Below, in pieces: positions 20,592-31,525 of a stretch of 54,166 bases of DNA. This stretch comes from a virus (lineage: Duplodnaviria; Heunggongvirae; Uroviricota; Caudoviricetes). Location of the stretch: the IMG/VR virus record IMGVR_UViG_2872198387_000006. One strand, written 5' to 3'. Each line of letters starts with the position of its first letter. The stretch's first letter is position 1. Position numbers and translations under genes: made by a program. The notes below the pieces were generated by a model. The model was not told the origin of the DNA. It worked only from the letters and a program-made list of their open reading frames with translations, and did no database searches.

Positions 20592-22173
20592 GTGATGTTG
20601 TCTCCTCTTCCGGCCTGCGACTCTCCGCTATCTGCTGCTGATACGCCTGGGCTATCCACACCGGACGTGAGAGTCCGGCTTTTTCGCGCTCTGCGGATTC
20701 CCTGACCTGCTGGCGGAAAATGTCCTGATAATCTTCGCCCATCAGTGCCAGTTCTTTCTCATACGTGCTCAGTCCGGCCTCAATGCGCATCACCGATTCC
20801 TGGACCTCCTTGAGCCCGTCAATGGCCATTCTTCCGGAGCCAATCCACTCTGCCCGTGACCAGGCTGAACGCGCCTGGTAAAAATCAAAACGCGCCCGTG
20901 GCGGACGAATAATCCCCGAAGAAGCGCCTCTTCCAGCCAGCAGGAAAACATCTGCGTGGCCAGCCGGGCCGCAATAAATTTTCGCCGCCCCATAAAATAG
21001 CGCCACGACTCATTGGCGGAGGCACGGGCACTTGAGTAACTGACCTTCGAGTAATCACGGGACAACTGTTCGTAGGAAACGCCAAGACCGGCTGCAATAT
21101 ACCGCAGCAGCGCCTGTTCAAGCGCCGAAAATCCATTGTCTGAATCCTGCGCTGTCTGCAGGTTCAGCGCATCGCCAGGAAAAAAGGTGCGGAATTTTAA
21201 CACCGCCCAGCGTCACGTTATTCGTGTCATACCAGCGGGTGAACTTCTCCAGAATATTAATAAGCGGATTATCCTGCTGACCTTGCGGTGCCCCCGCGAT
21301 ATATTCAAATGCCTTTTCGGTATCAAGTTCACTTTCGATTGTGGCTGCATACATCGCCTTCACAATGGCCGACTGAAGCTGCGTGGCCTGCAGGGAGTCC
21401 AGCATCTTCATCCGCTCCATTACGCTGTAAAACTGATTGGCCCCACGGGTCTGCCCGTCCTCCACCGGCTCAAAAATATGCAGCATGGCCGGACGCCCGG
21501 TGGGAAGCTCACGCGGGATCCGCTCCCAGCGTCCGGCACCAGAGAACGGAAAATCATCCTCACAGATATGGTACGCAATCGCCCGCCCATACCGATCGAC
21601 CTCAACCCCGGCCCGCAGAAAGTGGTTCCCCATACCGTGTCCTGGCGTGTCCACCCGTTTCGGACTCACGGCTTTAAAACGCGTACGGAATAACTGCGTG
21701 GTTTCCGTATCCCAGACCGGCTGCACAAAGATTTCGCCGTTAAAGGCATGCACGCCCACCCCTTCACGGATAAATTCCGTAAACGTGCGTTTCCCTTCCA
21801 CGTCGATCTCGCCAAACATTCCTTCTGCGTATTCCGACCAGGCTGCTTCCACCTCCCCGACAAAACTTTTTGCCGTGGTCTCCCGCATCCCCAGCCAACG
21901 CCAGTTCAGACGGTAGCTGATAAGAAACATGTGCCCGACGATATGATCCTTATGCAGGGCCACCGCATTAGCCGCGATACCGTTATTGCGCACCAGATCA
22001 TCTGCCCGGGCATTCCCCAGACGCAATGCAGGCAACAGGGCCGCATCGGCACTCTGCGCCGGTGGTAACCACTCTGCCATTTGCCCGCCAAATCCTGCGC
22101 CGCCTCCGTTGTAGCTGAGACTCTCACGAAGCGGAACGCCGTTCACATCAATCAGGACAGGCGTTCGTTTCAT
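20581..22173 (-). pseudogene. B: Portal protein B, split into three reading frames by two frameshifts
   Basis: ORFs 21118-22173, 20790-21203 and 20581-21006 each align to consecutive parts of remembered lambda B. Confidence 0.8.
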
Positions 22174-22373: not shown

Positions 22374-24284
22374 TCACTCCTCCGGACAGCTTCGCTGCCA
22401 GTTCTTCAAGGGTCGGTTGTGCAGTTGCATCCTTGCGGGATGCCGCCAGCACAGCCAGATCAAGTTGCCAGCGTTGCACGGACACACGTAATGCCGCATA
22501 GGCATACACCAGGCAGTCCAGCGCTTCGTTACGCCGCTTTTTGTTATCCCACAACAGACGCATCTTTCCTTTTTCCCACTTTTCCACCAGTTCCTCCGCC
22601 ACCAGTTGTTGTGCCTCTGTCTGCGAAAAAATCTCCGGATTATCAGGAAAGCGGATGGCATACGATGTGGCCTCATTCACAGGGGTGGGATCGGCCTTCA
22701 TTCGGGCATAGAGAATTTCTTTTGCGGTATCCGTCCCCACCTCACACAGATACACACCCCGCTGATTGCGGGTTTTCGGCATGGTGATCACCGGCTTGCC
22801 ATAGACAGAGGCACCTTTTACCGGCAGTACCCGGAAAACACCGTGTTTTTTTGACCTCTGATACACGATTTCGCCATCGATCCCCCGATATCCCAGCAGA
22901 CACGGGAAATGGTCATTTCGGTACCGTCTGCATGGCGGTATTTTTTATTGATCGCCGCATCCACACGTAACAGCGTCTCTTCCTCATCAGGACGTCCCAT
23001 GATGATGATTTTATCCACCAGAAAGGCTTCCTCTCCCGGAGCCCACCCCCAGACATACATCTCAAAACGGTTTCGCTGCGAGTCAATGCCCGCCGTCAGA
23101 TAAACCACCCGGACAGGCACCGTTGCCGTGTAAGGCACAACCTTATCCATCAGTACCTGGTGATCGAGTTTTTCGCCCACGGCCTCTTCCCAGGTCTCGC
23201 CCAGCGTGGTGTTCACAAAAGTTTTCACGCCGTTGGGATCTTTCAGTGCATCCAGCCAGTCACAGACTATCTGTACCCAGGTGGTGAACGGACTGTACGC
23301 CGTCCATATATGGAAAGTGATGGAGCGCGGCGGCGGAATTTCATTACCCGAAGCACTGAAAAACGTCAGACCGTCACGCGTCCACATCCCGGTATTGTCA
23401 CAAATCCAGCGCCCCCCGGTCTGATCAAGTTCAGACTGACGGATCACGCAGCCATTATGTTCACACAGGTAATACACCGTTTCCGGTTTACCCTTCTCCC
23501 ATTTCAGGCCAAACGACGTCGCATCATCGCCAAACTTCAGATACTGCTCCTCCCCGCAATGAGGGCAAGGGACATAAAACCGCATGAAATGCGCAGATTC
23601 ATTCGCAGCTTTTTCAATCTGACAGGAGCCTTTAATTTTTGGCGTTGAACCGCGTATGGATTTTGGCCATACCGAACCTTCAATACGTTTATCGCCAAGC
23701 AGTGTTGGCGAACCTTCTTTTTCCACATCCGGTTCAAACGAGGAGAGTTCGTCATAGCAGACCACATCGACAGATTTTTCACGGTAGTTTTTGGCAGCAG
23801 CACCACCCAAACACCAGAACCCCACACCAGAGGAAAAACGCTTCAGTGTGAGCGTATTATCCCGGTGTTTCCGGCCCAGCCAGGGAGAAAGTTTTTTCAG
23901 GCAAGGAACATCACGAATTGTTGCTTCCACGTGAGACTTCATAAAATCTTCAGCAGCTGAGTCCGTCGGCTGAAAAAGAAGAGTGTTGCGGGATTTGTGC
24001 TCAATAAAATACCCGATCACACCAAGCACCATTTTTGTATAACCAACACGGGCAGATTTAATCAGGTTAACTGTACGAATCTCGTCATTGCCCATGCAGT
24101 TCATGATGGCGACCTGAAACGGCAGCGTTTTCCATTCCCCCTCACCGTATGACGATTCTTTAGGCAGGTAATAATTTTGATCGGCCCATTCTACAGCCGT
24201 CACCGGCAATACCCTGACCAGTGGCTGCAGTGCGATAGTGACTGCCACCATCATATTACTCAGTTGTTGTTCTGATATATTCAT
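22357..24284 (-). pseudogene. A: Terminase large subunit A, frameshifted near 22820-22870
   Basis: N-terminal ORF (start MNISEQQL at 24284) and C-terminal 169-aa ORF (22357-22866) align to remembered lambda A on either side of ...ISRVCWDIGG / ...YQRSKKHGVFRV. Confidence 0.8.
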
Positions 24285-24562
24285 CGAGTAAATCCGGTAA
24301 TTTATCCCCCGCACGCGCGCACTGATTCGCTCCCTTAGCAATAAGGATTTTCAGATGATCAATATGACGCGGCGTTAAATCCGGGAACTGTCGTTGCATG
24401 GACAAAGGAATGGAGTCAAGCGTACTGGATAAAGCCATCGCCAGCTTACTAAGGGCAAAAATACAAAATCCGGTATCGATAAGATTTCCTTTTGACACCT
24501 GATTTTTTAACTGCTGTGCGACAGCCTGTTCTGCGGTCAGTTCCCATCTGGCAATGAGTAGT
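24256..24562 (-). pseudogene. nu1: Terminase small subunit Nu1, C-terminal fragment; 5' end and cos region replaced by IS600
   Basis: Only the C-terminal ~100 residues match lambda Nu1; the ORF's first codons lie inside the IS600 terminus. Confidence 0.7.
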
Positions 24563-25647
24563 TTGAGGTGTACTGGCAATAGCGGACACTACCATTTGTT
24601 CTTTTTTTAAGCAGCCATCTGATGATATTTTTCCCTGAAGGCTGCCGGGGAGATATTCCCCAGACGAGAGTGACGACGCTGACGATTGTAGAAAATCTCA
24701 ATGTATTCCCGTATTACTGAGATGGCTTCATCCCGGTTATTAAAACGATAGTGGCTCAGGCTCTCATTTTTCAGCGTTCCCCAGAAGCTTTCCATCGGAG
24801 CGTTGTCGTAACAGTTACCTTTACGCGACATTGATGTTTTCAGACCAGACTGCTCCTGTATGACCCGGTAATCGTATGCGCAGTACTGTGAACCTCGATC
24901 AGAGTGGTGGATTAGCCCGGCAGGTGGGCGCTGGCTCCTGAGCGCCATAAACAGGGCTTTACCTGTCAGCTCTTTTGTCATGCGCTCTCCCATGGCGTAG
25001 CCGACAATTTCACACGTATAAACATCTTTGATGCCAGCGAGGTACAACCATCCCTCCTGTGTGGCAACATACGTCAGGTCCGCCACCCAGACCTGATTTG
25101 GTGCTGTAGGAGCGAACGTCTGGTTCAGCAGATTTGGCGCAACTGGCAGATTGTGGTTCGGGTTCGTAGTCGCTCTGAACTTGCGTTTCTGCTTACAGCG
25201 TAGCCTCAGCTCCTTACGAAGACGTGCCAGTCGGTCACGACCAACGATGATGCCATTCTCTGCCAGCTCCGTCTGGAGCCGCCGGGTTCCATATGTTTCG
25301 CGAGTGCGGATATGTGCCACCTTAATCTCCGGTTTTAGCCGCTCATCACTTTGTTTTCTGTCTGAGGGTTCATGCTGTACCCAGTTGTAATAACCGCTCC
25401 TGGATACACCAAATACCTGACACATCGCTTCAATGGGAAATTGTTGTCGCCATTGTTCGATTAACGCGTATTTTTCAGCGACTCCTGTGCAAAATACGCT
25501 GTTGCTTTTTTTAATATATCTCGCTCAAGGCGAGCTTCATTTAACGCCTTACGCAGTTGCAGAATTTCAGATTCCAGTTCAGCCACCGTGCGGGAACCAG
25601 GAGTACCGAGCCCTTTTCTGGCGGCGGTAACCCATTGTCCTAAAGTG
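24563..25647 (-). mobile_element. IS600 (IS3 family), partial copy 1, truncated within orfA by IS629
   Basis: Terminus TGAGGTGTACTGGCAATAGCGGACACTACC at 24563; orfB intact; orfA end missing. Confidence 0.8.
24607..25425 (-). CDS. IS600 OrfB transposase (DDE integrase domain)
   Basis: 272 aa, near-identical to the other two copies in the window. Confidence 0.85.
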   Translation of the reverse strand: MCQVFGVSRSGYYNWVQHEPSDRKQSDERLKPEIKVAHIRTRETYGTRRLQTELAENGIIVGRDRLARLRKELRLRCKQKRKFRATTNPNHNLPVAPNLLNQTFAPTAPNQVWVADLTYVATQEGWLYLAGIKDVYTCEIVGYAMGERMTKELTGKALFMALRSQRPPAGLIHHSDRGSQYCAYDYRVIQEQSGLKTSMSRKGNCYDNAPMESFWGTLKNESLSHYRFNNRDEAISVIREYIEIFYNRQRRHSRLGNISPAAFREKYHQMAA

Positions 25648-25701
25648 TGAACCGCCCCGGGAATCCTGGAGACTAAACTTCCTGAGAAAGAGGTAAACAG
25701 G

Positions 25702-26024
25702 ATGACTAAAAATACTCGTTTTTCCCCCGAAGTCCGTCAACGGGCAGTCCGTATGGTTCTGGAAAGTCAGGGCGAATATGACTCACAATGGGCGACAATT
25801 TGTTCCATTGCTCCAAAGATTGGCTGTACGCCGGAGACTCTGCGTGTCTGGGGTCGCCAGCATGAGCGGGATACCGGGGGCGGTGATGGAGGGCTCACCA
25901 CCGCTGAACGTCAGCGTCTGAAAGAGCCGGAGCGTGAAAATCGTGAACTGCGCCGCAGTAACGATATCCTTCGCCAGGCTTCCGCTTATTTTGCGAAGGC
26001 GGAGTTCGACCGCCTCTGGAAAAA

Positions 26025-26028
<4 letters not shown>
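25702..26028 (+). CDS. IS629 OrfA
   Basis: 108 aa, [26 protein letters not shown]... Confidence 0.85.
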
Positions 26029-26911
<883 letters not shown>

Positions 26912-26953
26912 GTTCACAGATAAAACACTCTCCAGGAAACCCGGGGCGGTTCA

Positions 26954-28012
26954 GTGCCTTCAGGACAATGGGTTACCGCCGCCAGAAAAGGGCTCGGTAC
27001 TCCTGGTTCCCGCACGGTGGCTGAACTGGAATCTGAAATTCTGCAACTGCGTAAGGCGTTAAATGAAGCTCGCCTTGAGCGCGATATATTAAAAAAATCA
27101 ACAGCGTATTTTGCACAGGAGTCGCTGAAAAATACGCGTTAATCGAACAATGGCGACAACAATTTCCCATTGAAGCGATGTGTCAGGTATTTGGTGTATC
27201 CAGGAGCGGTTATTACAACTGGGTACAGCATGAACCCTCAGACAGAAAACAAAGTGATGAGCGGCTAAAACTGGAGATTAAGGTGGCACATATCCGCACT
27301 CGCGAAACATATGGAACCCGGCGGCTCCAGACGGAGCTGGCAGAGAATGGCATCATCGTTGGTCGTGACCGACTGGCACGTCTTCGTAAGGAGCTGAGGC
27401 TACGCTGTAAGCAGAAACGCAAGTTCAGAGCGACTACGAACCCGAACCACAATCTGCCAGTTGCGCCAAATCTGCTGAACCAGACGTTCGCTCCTACAGC
27501 ACCAAATCAGGTCTGGGTGGCGGACCTGACGTATGTTGCTGGCATCAAAGATGTTTATACGTGCGAAATTGTCGGCTACGCCATGGGAGAGCGCATGACA
27601 AAAGAGCTGACAGGTAAAGCCCTGTTTATGGCGCTCAGGAGCCAGCGCCCACCTGCCGGGCTAATCCACCACTCTGATCGAGGTTCACAGTACTGCGCAT
27701 ACGATTACCGGGTCATACAGGAGCAGTCTGGTCTGAAAACATCAATGTCGCGTAAAGGTAACTGTTACGACAACGCTCCGATGGAAAGCTTCTGGGGAAC
27801 GCTGAAAAATGAGAGCCTGAGCCACTATCGTTTTAATAACCGGGATGAAGCCATCTCAGTAATACGGGAATACATTGAGATTTTCTACAATCGTCAGCGT
27901 CGTCACTCTCGTCTGGGGAATATCTCCCCGGCAGCCTTCAGGGAAAAATATCATCAGATGGCTGCTTAAAAAAAGAACAAATGGTAGTGTCCGCTATTGC
28001 CAGTACACCTCA
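26954..28012 (+). mobile_element. IS600, partial copy 2, inverted relative to copy 1; orfA 5' part absent
   Basis: Begins inside orfA, ends with the IS600 terminus ...GCCAGTACACCTCA at 28012; orfB has a 27-bp in-frame deletion (lacks TQEGWLYLA). Confidence 0.8.
27178..27969 (+). CDS. IS600 OrfB transposase (variant with 9-aa deletion)
   Basis: 263 aa versus 272 aa in copies 1 and 3. Confidence 0.8.
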   Translation: MCQVFGVSRSGYYNWVQHEPSDRKQSDERLKLEIKVAHIRTRETYGTRRLQTELAENGIIVGRDRLARLRKELRLRCKQKRKFRATTNPNHNLPVAPNLLNQTFAPTAPNQVWVADLTYVAGIKDVYTCEIVGYAMGERMTKELTGKALFMALRSQRPPAGLIHHSDRGSQYCAYDYRVIQEQSGLKTSMSRKGNCYDNAPMESFWGTLKNESLSHYRFNNRDEAISVIREYIEIFYNRQRRHSRLGNISPAAFREKYHQMAA

Positions 28013-28192
28013 GACCCTGGGTACTTTCTTCATGAAACTGCGGTGTTCGAGTTTGCGATATTTCTTACAGGGGAACGCAAGCCCCTCCGCCTCCGCTTTG
28101 GATTTCCGATCAGCATTAATGTAATCCACCATCTCAAGACTGCTCATGGTCGGGTATTCGCCAGAAGGAAGAACGGTTAATGATTTGTTCAT
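28010..28192 (-). CDS. Hypothetical phage protein, possibly the N-terminal fragment of a Rha/antirepressor-like regulator cut by IS600
   Basis: 60 aa; the stop codon is supplied by the IS600 terminus; ...TMSSLEMVDYIN... loosely resembles Rha N-termini. Confidence 0.35.
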   Translation of the reverse strand: MNKSLTVLPSGEYPTMSSLEMVDYINADRKSKAEAEGLAFPCKKYRKLEHRSFMKKVPRV

Positions 28193-28394
28193 GTCGGTAT
28201 TTCCTTTAGAAAGTTGAGCCTGTTCGCACAGAAAAGCCGTCCCCGAGAGGTCCTCACCTATACGGCAGTTCTCAGGCTCAGCTTTCTGAAAGACTCGGGA
28301 TTGTTACGCGCTGCGATGCGCGGTTTACTGCGGACATATAAAAGCCCCGCAAGTGCGAGGCTCATTAAATGGACTTTGTGATTTGCAAAAAAAT

Positions 28395-28862
28395 TTATTT
28401 CAGGCACTGAGTCCTGATGTACTCCTGAAGCATTCTCAATGCTGTCTGGTCGCTGATGATTCCGTCCCGGATACCGAGAACGTTTCGTCCAGCAACTGGA
28501 GAGAGTTCGACGGTGGCATCATTGCCCATGCCGGAGGCGCTGGAGGTTTCGGCTGAGGATGGCACAGGGCATTTTCCTTTGACGAGCACCCGACCACCAT
28601 TATCAAGCTTGCGCCGAAGAGCATCATTTTCAGCTTTCGCATCAGCTAACTCCTTCGTGTATTTAGCATCGAGTGCATCAGCATCACGCTGGCGCTGCTG
28701 CATGTCAGTAATGGTTGCGTTCGCCAGCTTCAGTTCTCCGGCGTTTTTGTCGCGCTGCTCTTTGTAGGTAATGGCGTTATCACGGTAATGATTAACAGCC
28801 CATGACAGGCAGACGATGATGCAGATAACCAGAGCGGAGATAATCGCGGTGACTCTGCTCAT
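28395..28862 (-). CDS. Rz: Spanin inner-membrane subunit Rz
   Basis: Start taken at [18 protein letters not shown] (N-terminal transmembrane segment), coiled-coil body, directly downstream of the endolysin. Confidence 0.8.
28436..28642 (-). CDS. Rz1: Spanin outer-membrane lipoprotein Rz1, embedded in the +1 frame of Rz
   Basis: 68 aa with lipobox-like LIMVVGC and proline-rich body, entirely inside Rz. Confidence 0.65.
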
Positions 28863-29392
28863 TGATCTATCCCCCAACAGGCTAATGCGCTTTCCTGGTC
28901 ACGACGAATAACCTGTCCATAGCAGTTATTTGAACGTATGCGGCAATCGCGCCCAACATCTTTTATCCACCAGCGAATCGCCTCGCATGCGCCCTTACGA
29001 TCACCGGCATTCAGCCGCTTATAAAACGTCGACGGGAAACACTTACCGGGGCCAATGTTATAGGGGCAAAATGACGCTATACCCGCTTTCTGGGGTTCGG
29101 TCAGAGGTACTTTAATATTGCGCTCCACCCATGCCAGCGCCTTATCACGTTCAATAGCGTTAACCTGGTCACATTTTTCCTTCGACAGCTTCATTCCCGG
29201 TATGACAGGCTTACCATCCACCATTGTGGCACCACGACAGATGGTCCATATGCCAGAACCATCACGGTATGCCGTTGTGTGATTACCCTCTTTTTCGTTC
29301 AGAAACTGGTCAAGTATCTGGGGAGCAGACGCGCCTGCGGCAATCAGCGCCAGAACAGCAGCCGACAGGCCGTATTTGATTTTTGCGCTCAT
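28859..29392 (-). CDS. R: SAR endolysin (phage-21 R-type lysozyme with N-terminal signal-anchor-release segment)
   Basis: 177 aa; hydrophobic Gly/Ala-rich N-terminus (…[16 protein letters not shown]…) and lysozyme core. Confidence 0.8.
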
Positions 29393-29457
29393 GGATATTT
29401 ATCAGGATTTATCGGCAACAAATAACGAGCCAACTTATATACGCCTTTTAAGATAAG

Positions 29458-30087
29458 TCAGCCCCGGCTGGATCCAGTCATCAGGCTCTTTCTTAAAGGG
29501 GGAGTATTGAAATCACGAAGAAGAGCCTCCCGCACCGCAGCATCCATGTCTGCACCACTGGCAAGTGCTTCAATCTCTGCCGCCACCTGCAAATACCCCA
29601 TGCAACGGCCAATGCGTTTCATAACTCTGGTGTTTTCGTCTTTCAGGCATCTGATAGCGAGATTAATAATTTTCAGGCAGTGATGATGCGATGCCCGGAC
29701 AGGTTTTCCGTTCTCATAAACGACGAACTCACCCTCTTCACAGGAAACCCTGAAAGGCCGATGGGGTTCCTGGTCTTTATCCGGTGCAGACGCAATAAAA
29801 TCACTTTTATGCTCTTCCTCTCCGGCACCGTTAACCGTAATGACGTACTCAGGCCGCAGGTAAGCCGCCTCTTTTTCTGACAATGCGGCCGGTAAAAACT
29901 TTTCCTGCAAAAACTTCATAAAAGTCTCGTGAGCGACTTTGTGGCAGTAATCGTAAATCGCCGCATAATGCTCATCGCGGCGTTTGTTTTCATCTTCAGA
30001 ACTCACCAACGCCGACAATTTTTTATTAAGCTCAGTGATTTCATTTTCCAGGTGATTGAATCGCTGATTCATTTCTTCATGCTTCAT
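29458..30087 (-). CDS. Hypothetical 209-aa cargo protein inserted between holin and endolysin
   Basis: Start overlaps the holin stop (ATGA, translational coupling); predicted coiled-coil N-terminus, Cys/His-rich segment (SHHHCLKIINLAIRCL), no transmembrane segment; not recognised. Confidence 0.6.
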   Translation of the reverse strand: MKHEEMNQRFNHLENEITELNKKLSALVSSEDENKRRDEHYAAIYDYCHKVAHETFMKFLQEKFLPAALSEKEAAYLRPEYVITVNGAGEEEHKSDFIASAPDKDQEPHRPFRVSCEEGEFVVYENGKPVRASHHHCLKIINLAIRCLKDENTRVMKRIGRCMGYLQVAAEIEALASGADMDAAVREALLRDFNTPPLRKSLMTGSSRG

Positions 30088-30090
30088 TAT

Positions 30091-30306
30091 TTACTCTCCC
30101 CGTGCAGCCTTACGCTTGTCTTCTCTTATTTTGAAATACAGATTCGTCAGATAAGTCAGAAGCCCCAGAAGCAGACTTCCCAGCACACCAATCGCAGCCC
30201 ACTGTGATGGCCTGACCTGATCCAACCACTGCAAAAACCAGTAGCCGGCACTGCCGGCGGAGGTGCCGTAGGCAATGCCCGTTGAAATTTTGTCCATGGA
30301 TTTCAT
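30091..30306 (-). CDS. S: S21-type pinholin with dual start (MKSMDKIS...)
   Basis: 71 aa, essentially matching the remembered phage 21 S protein with two transmembrane segments. Confidence 0.85.
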
Positions 30307-30598: not shown

Positions 30599-30673
<75 letters not shown>

Positions 30674-30676
30674 ATA

Positions 30677-30752
<76 letters not shown>

Positions 30753-30754
30753 GC

Positions 30755-30831
30755 TGGCCCACCACCGAGGACTCGAACCTCGCACCGTCAACTTAGAAGG
30801 TTGATGCTCTATCCGGATGAGCTAGTGGTGG
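30755..30831 (-). tRNA. tRNA-Arg (anticodon UCU)
   Basis: 77 nt with anticodon loop CTTCTAA and T-arm GGTTCGAGTCC; acceptor stem CCACCAC/GTGGTGG. Confidence 0.75.
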
Positions 30832-30832
30832 T

Positions 30833-30909
30833 TGGTGGCCCTTGCTGGACTTGAACCAGCGACCTGGCGATTATGAGTCGCTCGCTCTGACCAACTGAGC
30901 TAAAGGGCC
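30833..30909 (-). tRNA. tRNA with CAU anticodon, most likely tRNA-Ile2 (lysidine) by resemblance to E. coli ileX; tRNA-Met not excluded
   Basis: 77 nt GGCCCTTTAGCTCAG...ACTCATAATCG...GGGCCACCA. Confidence 0.7.
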
Positions 30910-31108: not shown

Positions 31109-31525
31109 TCAGGGATGTTCAATATATTTGTCCATTTCTAACCGGACACCCAACATCATCAACATTCCTTCCACCACCCCCTCGGCTTTTTGTAGCTTCT
31201 TTCCTATATAACCATCTGAGCATCCATGCTTCCGCGCCAGCGTCATGAATGTCATCCCAAACACGTAGTAGTCAACCAGCAAGTCATGTAGATCGTTGTT
31301 GTTCCGGTTAAGGCGGGCCATACACCCACATATAACCATCGCGTCATCGTCACAGCATTGCGGGCGGGATTTTACTTTTGAAGGGATTAATCCCTTAAAA
31401 CCGGCAGCAATGGACGACCAGGTCACATCCTCATGATTATTAGCCACCCACGCGCCCCAGCGCTCAAGAACCTGCTGAATATCACGCATCACTGTCTTTA
31501 CCCCTGTCCCATCCACGATGAACAA
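31109..31525 (-). CDS. Q: Late-gene antiterminator Q
   Basis: 138 aa with a Cys-rich segment (…[20 protein letters not shown]…); sits upstream of the tRNAs and lysis genes. Confidence 0.7.

Follow-up and report, generated by a model that had tools for sequence, protein, structure and literature searches.

YdfR of Escherichia coli K-12 (P76160, 103 amino acids (aa), Qin prophage) consists of the DUF1327 domain only and is the sole member of its family with experimental data: it binds RNase E at the catalytic domain via its own residues 1-72 and co-purifies RNA; when overexpressed, it alters few transcripts (PMC13232886). The term DUF1327 was also found in a comparative-genomics paper; the genes between S and R are not discussed in the paper on the lytic cassette of Shiga toxin (Stx) phages (PMC8136144), and no literature mention of WP_001300760 was found. 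The present analysis concerns a 209-aa open reading frame (ORF) located between the holin gene S and the endolysin gene R of a prophage of the Caudoviricetes (IMG/VR record IMGVR_UViG_2872198387_000006); «the window» designates the whole stretch of DNA analysed, i.e., 54,166 nucleotides (nt). In the gene order of Qin, ydfR stands at the equivalent place, between essQ and rrrQ. It is probable that the ORF of the window is a degenerate short-form member of this late-operon accessory family, most likely an inactive or crippled remnant without part in lysis. The homology, the architecture, the slot occupancy, the frameshift and the decay of the prophage are established at the level of sequence comparison. 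The features of the ORF are the following:

29458..30087, minus strand: 209-aa ORF, short-form (C-module-only) member of the long YdfR / phrog_1085 family, with a frameshifted 3' end
29498..29502, minus strand: C5 homopolymer run, where 1 nt has been deleted (the intact allele has C6, ACT CCC CCC TTT; DNA alignment)
29435..29497, minus strand: out-of-frame remnant of the conserved tail, FKKEPDDWIQPGLTYLKRRI, with the native stop at 29437-29435 (three-frame translation)
30096..30099, minus strand: GGAG Shine-Dalgarno of the ORF, 8 nt upstream of its ATG (30087) and within the 3' end of the holin gene (read directly)

The protein is matched by phrog_1085, a PHROGs family of unknown function (E 9.9e-74, residues 1-209 versus profile positions 117-288 of 296), and the 49 aligned relatives all match both phrog_1085 and phrog_26186. 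The window ORF is a member of phrog_1085 and, like its relatives, is linked in the Q-dependent late operon to a cassette of class II holin, lysozyme and Rz. An earlier reading made from the sequence alone (hereafter the sequence-only reading) had presented the protein as unrecognised; it is in fact known to the databases via phrog_1085 and as the C-terminal part of NCBI entries named 'YdfR family protein', protein and family being deposited as uncharacterised entries. A search of 5.8 billion proteins gave 132 homologues, and the names among the matches listed are all from E. coli or Shigella. Two architectures are found: (i) short forms of 185-222 aa, like the ORF; (ii) long forms (260-333 aa), which carry PF07041 at the N-terminus and bear the names 'YdfR family protein' or 'DUF1327 domain-containing protein'. 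Among the latter, P0004 (333 aa) ranks best, with 81% identity to the ORF protein over 94% of the query, at P0004 residues ~117-333.

In the alignment, the order of the long forms is DUF1327 domain, linker, coiled coil, variable middle and conserved C-terminal module (C-module). As delimited there, the C-module is ~110 residues long and ends with PPFK..P..W..PG..YL; its pattern is F.V...G....SH.H..I..AI..LK ... MKRIGRCMGYLQVAAEIEALASGAD...REALLRDFNTPPFKKEPDDWIQPGLTYLKxRI. The ORF protein retains the long-form portion from the coiled coil onward, save the frameshifted tail. The core of the C-module (F..V...G....H.H..I..AI..L ... GRCMGYLQVAAEIEA ... L..F..PP) is present, with all invariant or near-invariant columns up to P197, and the conserved tail FK..P..W..PG..YL..R is absent from the 209-aa product. 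PF07041 (DUF1327/YdfR) gives no match in the ORF protein, even at E <= 1. Thus, compared to the long YdfR proteins (287-333 aa, e.g., P0004, encoded at L005 4001-5002), which have the same slot, coiled coil and C-module, the window ORF is without the first ~130 residues (DUF1327 and linker) and without the 20-residue conserved tail. The intact short forms (185-222 aa; P0006, 217 aa; BCI98956.1, 213 aa, from the Stx2a-converting phage Stx2_12E129_yecE) have the same architecture, 3-nt spacing and slot as the window ORF; unlike it, they keep the PPFKKEPDDWIQPGLTYLKxRI tail, and some are followed by a convergent small ORF.

By blastn, the window matches the long-form locus L005 at nt 1-224 (holin and junction) and at nt 618-1317 (94.7% identity), and is without nt 225-617 (~390 nt), which code for DUF1327 and the linker. 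Locus L002, with a 116-aa 'YdfR family protein', matches L005 at nt 1-556 and 1242-1317 and is without nt 557-1241, i.e., the coiled coil and the C-module. On the basis of these DNA matches, the short and the N-only proteins are complementary halves of the long YdfR form. K-12 YdfR represents the other half of the two-domain ancestor, and no similarity is detectable between the window protein and the 116-aa YdfR (BLASTP E 0.37).

From 1.84 billion representative proteins, an exhaustive hidden Markov model search recovered no more than 43 clusters at 50% identity (its long HEAT, LRR and SRCR proteins were discarded as repeat artefacts following a comparison with Pfam), a second profile search gave 498 proteins, and the family was found in 3 of 185,579 species-representative genomes. 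The distant relatives are hypothetical proteins of Salmonella enterica, of 250-325 aa, encoded in Gifsy-like prophages (P0125, P0173, P0176). They have the same C-module (LGRCMGLLQVAAEIEA ... DFDNPPFK..P..WI.PG..YL) at ~30% identity, and their genes are located, as in the window, in the late operon by the lysis genes. Unlike the window ORF, they lie between Q (and HicAB) and the holin gene, and a convergent small ORF is always found downstream. Their N-terminal region is unrecognised by Pfam and aligns to the E. coli DUF1327 profile with 92.8% probability (hhalign, E 4e-7). Since the Salmonella relatives share both the DUF1327-like N-domain and the C-module, the two-domain protein is likely the ancestral state and the short forms would be derived. 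In each of the three Salmonella contexts studied (L012-L017, ~2100-3300), Q is separated from the family gene by a HicA/HicB toxin-antitoxin pair on the opposite strand.

The 3' end of the window allele differs from that of the family. The frame shifts at codon 198, and the last 12 residues, LRKSLMTGSSRG, cannot be aligned with the family. Read from 29497 in the -1 frame, the DNA gives FKKEPDDWIQPGLTYLKRRI*, which is identical to the tail of P0004. Of the 30 positions that are invariant or nearly so in the 49-sequence alignment of the family, 8 (F, K, W, P, G, Y, L, R) fall in this tail. The sequence-only reading overlooked both this C-terminal frameshift and the N-terminal truncation relative to the two-domain ancestor. 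The same C5 run occurs in E. coli CFSAN029787 (L001) and Shigella flexneri SFBU1023 (L101), the latter having 99.7% identity to the window over 4.6 kb; adding ECMA0423 and the window itself, all four sequences retrieved carry it. The same cassette is present in six complete E. coli genomes. The exact 209-aa protein corresponds to the entry 'MULTISPECIES: hypothetical protein [Shigella]', which is found on at least 1000 contigs, and the C5 allele is fixed in S. flexneri. Compared with the intact alleles, the pairwise ratio of nonsynonymous to synonymous substitution rates (dN/dS) is 0.47-0.94.

A programmed frameshift was rejected, the run being merely C5; a C5 run is too short for efficient slippage. 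The same consideration bears on the idea that the 209-aa frameshifted product is the functional Shigella form, by adaptive replacement of the tail or by occasional restoration of the frame through slippage on the C run. Fixation across S. flexneri and some E. coli (CFSAN029787) with no further disruption visible, together with an out-of-frame tail intact at the nucleotide level, would agree with it. Nevertheless, it appears very unlikely: slippage on C5 would be inefficient, the lost tail carries the near-invariant W, PG and Y, the prophage around is decaying, and the lineage is young, so that the lack of further mutations is little informative.

The ORF itself has 630 base pairs (bp) and 209 codons, from the ATG at 30087 to the stop at 29458-29460, and lies on the minus strand as do all the cassette genes, including holin, lysozyme and Rz/Rz1. 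The description of a 209-aa ATG ORF between an S21-type pinholin and a phage lysozyme, on the same strand, was thus correct. On the contrary, the ATGA overlap proposed between its start and the holin stop does not exist: the junction is ...GGGGAGAG TAA ATA ATG, where the holin stop and the ORF start read GAG TAA ATA ATG, i.e., a 3-nt spacer. As the GGAG Shine-Dalgarno sits within the 3' end of the holin gene, translational coupling of the ORF to the holin would still be plausible despite this spacer. No membrane segment is found in the 209-aa protein (the maximum of the 19-residue Kyte-Doolittle window is 0.76), and the first ~64 residues are helical in the AlphaFold2 model (helices 3-27 and 30-64); both results agree with the lack of a membrane segment and the coiled-coil N-terminus initially described. 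Of the Cys/His-rich segment also described, the composition stands (5 Cys and 10 His, three of the latter forming HHH at 134-136), without any conserved metal-binding motif: only His 134/136 and, mostly, Cys162 (Ser or Ala in some members) are conserved. Two candidates were rejected, namely a conserved Cys/His metal site, as one or two such residues are conserved at most, and a chance ORF, as conservation at the protein level spans E. coli to Salmonella.

These data can be assembled as follows. The ancestor would be a two-domain cytoplasmic protein, in which the DUF1327 (YdfR) domain at the N-terminus is followed by a linker, a coiled coil and the C-module. Late in infection, the full-length protein would act upon the RNA metabolism of the host: DUF1327 would dock on RNase E or on RNA, and the C-module would be the partner-binding or effector part. 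In E. coli, the family gene between S and R would probably be translationally coupled to S. The window copy has kept only the coiled coil and the C-module, and its conserved tail is lost through the 1-nt homopolymer deletion. Because it is without the docking domain and without the tail, the window allele is most likely non-functional and inert. Several points weigh against this reading: (i) there is no C-module-bearing member of the family with a demonstrated function; (ii) the RNase E result concerns DUF1327, a domain without counterpart in the window protein; (iii) many intact short forms occur in large clusters (P0039, P0054, P0064 and P0067, with 228-338 member sequences each), hence the C-module may function on its own through some unrelated mechanism; (iv) the frame is preserved for 197 of 217 residues and at least 1000 Shigella contigs keep the allele, and some residual function of it is conceivable; (v) the dN/dS of 0.47-0.94 indicates a weak constraint, which decay, fast adaptive evolution and mosaic recombination fit equally.

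The occupancy of the slot was determined on the 80 IMG/VR loci ranking highest in holin similarity, in which holin, lysozyme and family modules were located by tblastn; the counts are those of the 73 loci containing both S and R. S and R are adjacent, with a 1-nt overlap, in 26 of the 73; in the other 47 (64%) they are 312-1085 bp apart, with a DUF1327-family gene (103-243 aa) between them. The C-module itself is in none of the 80 holin-selected loci. It had been stated that the holin is normally followed directly by the endolysin; this fails for the present phage group, where S and R are not usually adjacent and nearly two thirds of the loci hold a DUF1327/YdfR-family gene. Annotated E. coli genomes likewise show the slot occupied: E. 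coli chromosomes and an Stx2a-converting phage genome have intact homologues of 333, 217 and 213 aa in the S-R slot, and the short-form homologues begin 3 nt past the holin stop, as in the window. In the Salmonella Gifsy-like prophages and in the metagenomic relative P0147, the gene is in the late region upstream of the holin. Judged by gene order, the family is thus a late-operon accessory linked to class II holin/lysozyme cassettes and not bound to the S-R junction, and it is dispensable, S and R being adjacent in 26 of the 73 close loci. The view of a soluble, uncharacterised accessory gene of the late lysis operon, placed for co-expression with S and R in a variable slot, is upheld. A known lysis accessory protein routinely present at this place was to count against the sequence-only reading, and this applies by half: the family is routine in the slot, and has no known lysis role. 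As a minor observation, nine IMG/VR loci (L033 and 8 others) have a 692-bp S-R gap, with a 114-aa DUF1327 gene followed by ~340 bp that match neither the C-module nor the convergent ORF families described below.

The gene product might be a soluble regulator of lysis timing, antiholin-like or a modulator of the SAR-type endolysin, which translational coupling would keep in a fixed ratio to the pinholin and which would delay or sharpen its triggering in the manner of phage P1 LydB. All contexts observed show the gene linked to class II holin/lysozyme cassettes, either within the S-R slot or directly upstream of S; this is consistent with such a role, as are the 3-nt spacer and the Shine-Dalgarno within the holin 3' end. 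The likeness to the soluble lysis regulators LydB of P1 and RI of T4 is a functional analogy only, i.e., a small gene beside the holin in a lysis cluster; LydB is not known to have a membrane segment. No sequence relationship to them was found (no match among the PHROGs of the category 'lysis'), and the gene is dispensable in a third of close relatives. The S21-type holin, as in phage 21, already has an antiholin of its own through the MKSM dual start. Considering also that nothing separates S and R in 26 of 73 loci, that the site relative to S differs between genera, that the protein has neither a membrane segment nor a match among the 'lysis' PHROGs, and that the window allele is without the conserved tail, a role in lysis timing is unlikely.

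With Pfam and NCBIfam, the ORF protein gives no match beyond coiled-coil noise below the threshold (EzrA, Relaxase_C and the like, E >= 0.01). A Pfam scan of the 49 aligned relatives for a consistent weak signal gives DUF1327 alone, in 16 of them, and no lysis-category PHROG or Pfam lysis match is obtained with either the ORF protein or these relatives. Beta-lactoglobulin, the sole match of the PDB profile search (E 0.02), was rejected. The mean predicted local distance difference test (pLDDT) of the AlphaFold2 models is 47.4 for the window protein (25-sequence alignment) and 50.4 for full-length P0004 (49 sequences including Salmonella), where DUF1327 reaches 70-90 and the C-module 50-70. Fold searches with both models, of low confidence in the C-module, gave no confident match.

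Many family genes, in the S-R slot of E. coli as well as in the Q-S region of Salmonella, have a small convergent ORF that abuts or overlaps their 3' end:

L104 3154-3468, L012 4307-4624, L099 436-759 and L100 585-902, minus strand: convergent ORFs, first set
L105 1943-2203, L003 2479-2760, L014 4381-4641 and L016 4349-4645, minus strand: convergent ORFs, second set

Group A convergent ORFs have ~104-107 aa and the motif ELSYLDC.WD, with 46% identity between the E. coli Stx2a-phage and Salmonella copies; those of group B have ~86-98 aa and the motif LP[DE]E.K. Pfam gives no significant match for either group. The family gene and the convergent ORF may form a conserved two-gene module, the second gene being transcribed against the late operon. 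No trace of either convergent ORF family is found at the corresponding place of the window (29393-29457).

The gene could be a cargo (moron) acting in defence, anti-defence or superinfection exclusion, or as a toxin, perhaps jointly with the convergent ORF in a two-gene module. In favour of this, the slot varies and is mosaic, evolution is fast (dN/dS 0.5-0.9), the taxonomic range is very narrow (43 clusters; 3 of the 185,579 genomes), and small convergent ORFs, of two families, are repeatedly found by the gene in E. coli as well as in Salmonella. Against this, PADLOC-DB defence profiles give 0 families at E <= 1 with the ORF protein, the convergent partner is wholly absent from the window and the allele is frameshifted. 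Moreover, no promoter-like signal above chance is found upstream, so that expression would be late lytic only, which is atypical of morons protecting the lysogen. The cargo role is quite unlikely, and nothing supports the toxin or defence/anti-defence factor proposed at the outset, neither a PADLOC match nor a promoter signal above chance. In another proposal, the C-module would be the effector of a new late-acting phage system, e.g., a modulator of host RNA decay or of lysis timing docked to RNase E by DUF1327, or a two-gene module with the convergent ORF, and the Shigella allele would be its natural tail-less variant. This proposal comes from the facts that the C-module is absent from Pfam, is confined to Escherichia, Shigella and Salmonella prophages, is always by a pinholin/lysozyme pair and often has a convergent ORF; we regard it as improbable.

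With the window ORF read as a degenerate short form, little is at stake for the window itself, i.e., a decayed copy in a defective Shigella prophage, an ordinary slot filler. What is new here is that (i) the short 'hypothetical' forms are tied to the long YdfR; (ii) the short and N-only forms are complementary halves; (iii) the Shigella allele is frameshifted; (iv) statistics of slot occupancy are available. Annotations can be corrected accordingly: the many S-R entries of 185-222 aa named 'hypothetical protein', from E. coli, Shigella and Stx phages, correspond to the C-terminal half of long YdfR and the YdfR proteins of 103-116 aa to its N-terminal half, and the Shigella allele is to be flagged as frameshifted. 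At the level of the family, a two-domain protein is carried by the lysis genes in the majority of this prophage group, including an Stx2a-converting phage, and its role in late development is a testable question. The N-domain was recently reported as an RNase E binder (PMC13232886).

The gene order in the window is Q - tRNAs - S - ORF - R - Rz/Rz1, with the following features around the ORF:

31109..31525, minus strand: late antiterminator Q, the product of which would drive transcription of the cassette (PF06530 E 5.8e-54)
30599..30909, minus strand: four phage tRNA genes, anticodons CAT, TCT, TGT and TCC, between Q and the holin gene
30091..30306, minus strand: S21-type class II holin (pinholin), 71 aa, with the MKSM dual-start motif (PF04971 E 5.5e-35; phrog_20/9876 'holin')
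28859..29392, minus strand: endolysin (phage lysozyme), 177 aa (PF00959 E 5.4e-24; phrog_7 endolysin)
28395..28877, minus strand: Rz i-spanin (PF03245 E 4.9e-30)
28436-28642: Rz1 o-spanin lipoprotein ORF embedded in Rz, with a lipobox-like LIMVVGC
28342..28363, minus strand: terminator-like hairpin just 3' of Rz (consensus scan only)

From its hydrophobic N-terminus, the lysozyme at 28859-29392 is a putative endolysin of the signal-arrest-release (SAR) type. In the cassette region (28.3-31.3 kb), promoter- and terminator-like signals do not exceed the count expected from shuffles, and no promoter-like site is placed to drive the ORF separately. With no internal signal above chance and a hairpin after Rz, the arrangement fits a single Q-dependent late transcript to which the ORF would belong. 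In related prophages, the tRNA sets at the same place are Ile/Arg/Thr/Gly or Ile/Lys/Thr/Gly; the CAT tRNA is called Met by ARAGORN and annotated tRNA-Ile in the relatives.

Three sets of IS3-family transposase ORFs (rve/HTH_21, HTH_Tnp_1) are present at 24607-27969, between Rz and the terminase gene. The TerL ORF (22818-24341) has 507 aa versus 642 aa in relatives, and the portal ORF (21118-22173), with 351 aa, is apparently truncated. Because of these insertions and apparent truncations, the prophage around the ORF is judged defective from its gene content. A 272-aa ORF at 47169-47987, of equal length, may be a further copy of the insertion sequence (IS). Finally, 3' of Rz the window parts from the nearly identical CFSAN029787 prophage (window 28010-28192, minus strand, versus L001 5347-6831): the latter carries a ParD/ParE toxin-antitoxin pair and a KilA-N gene at this place, and the window only a 60-aa ORF fragment before the IS elements.
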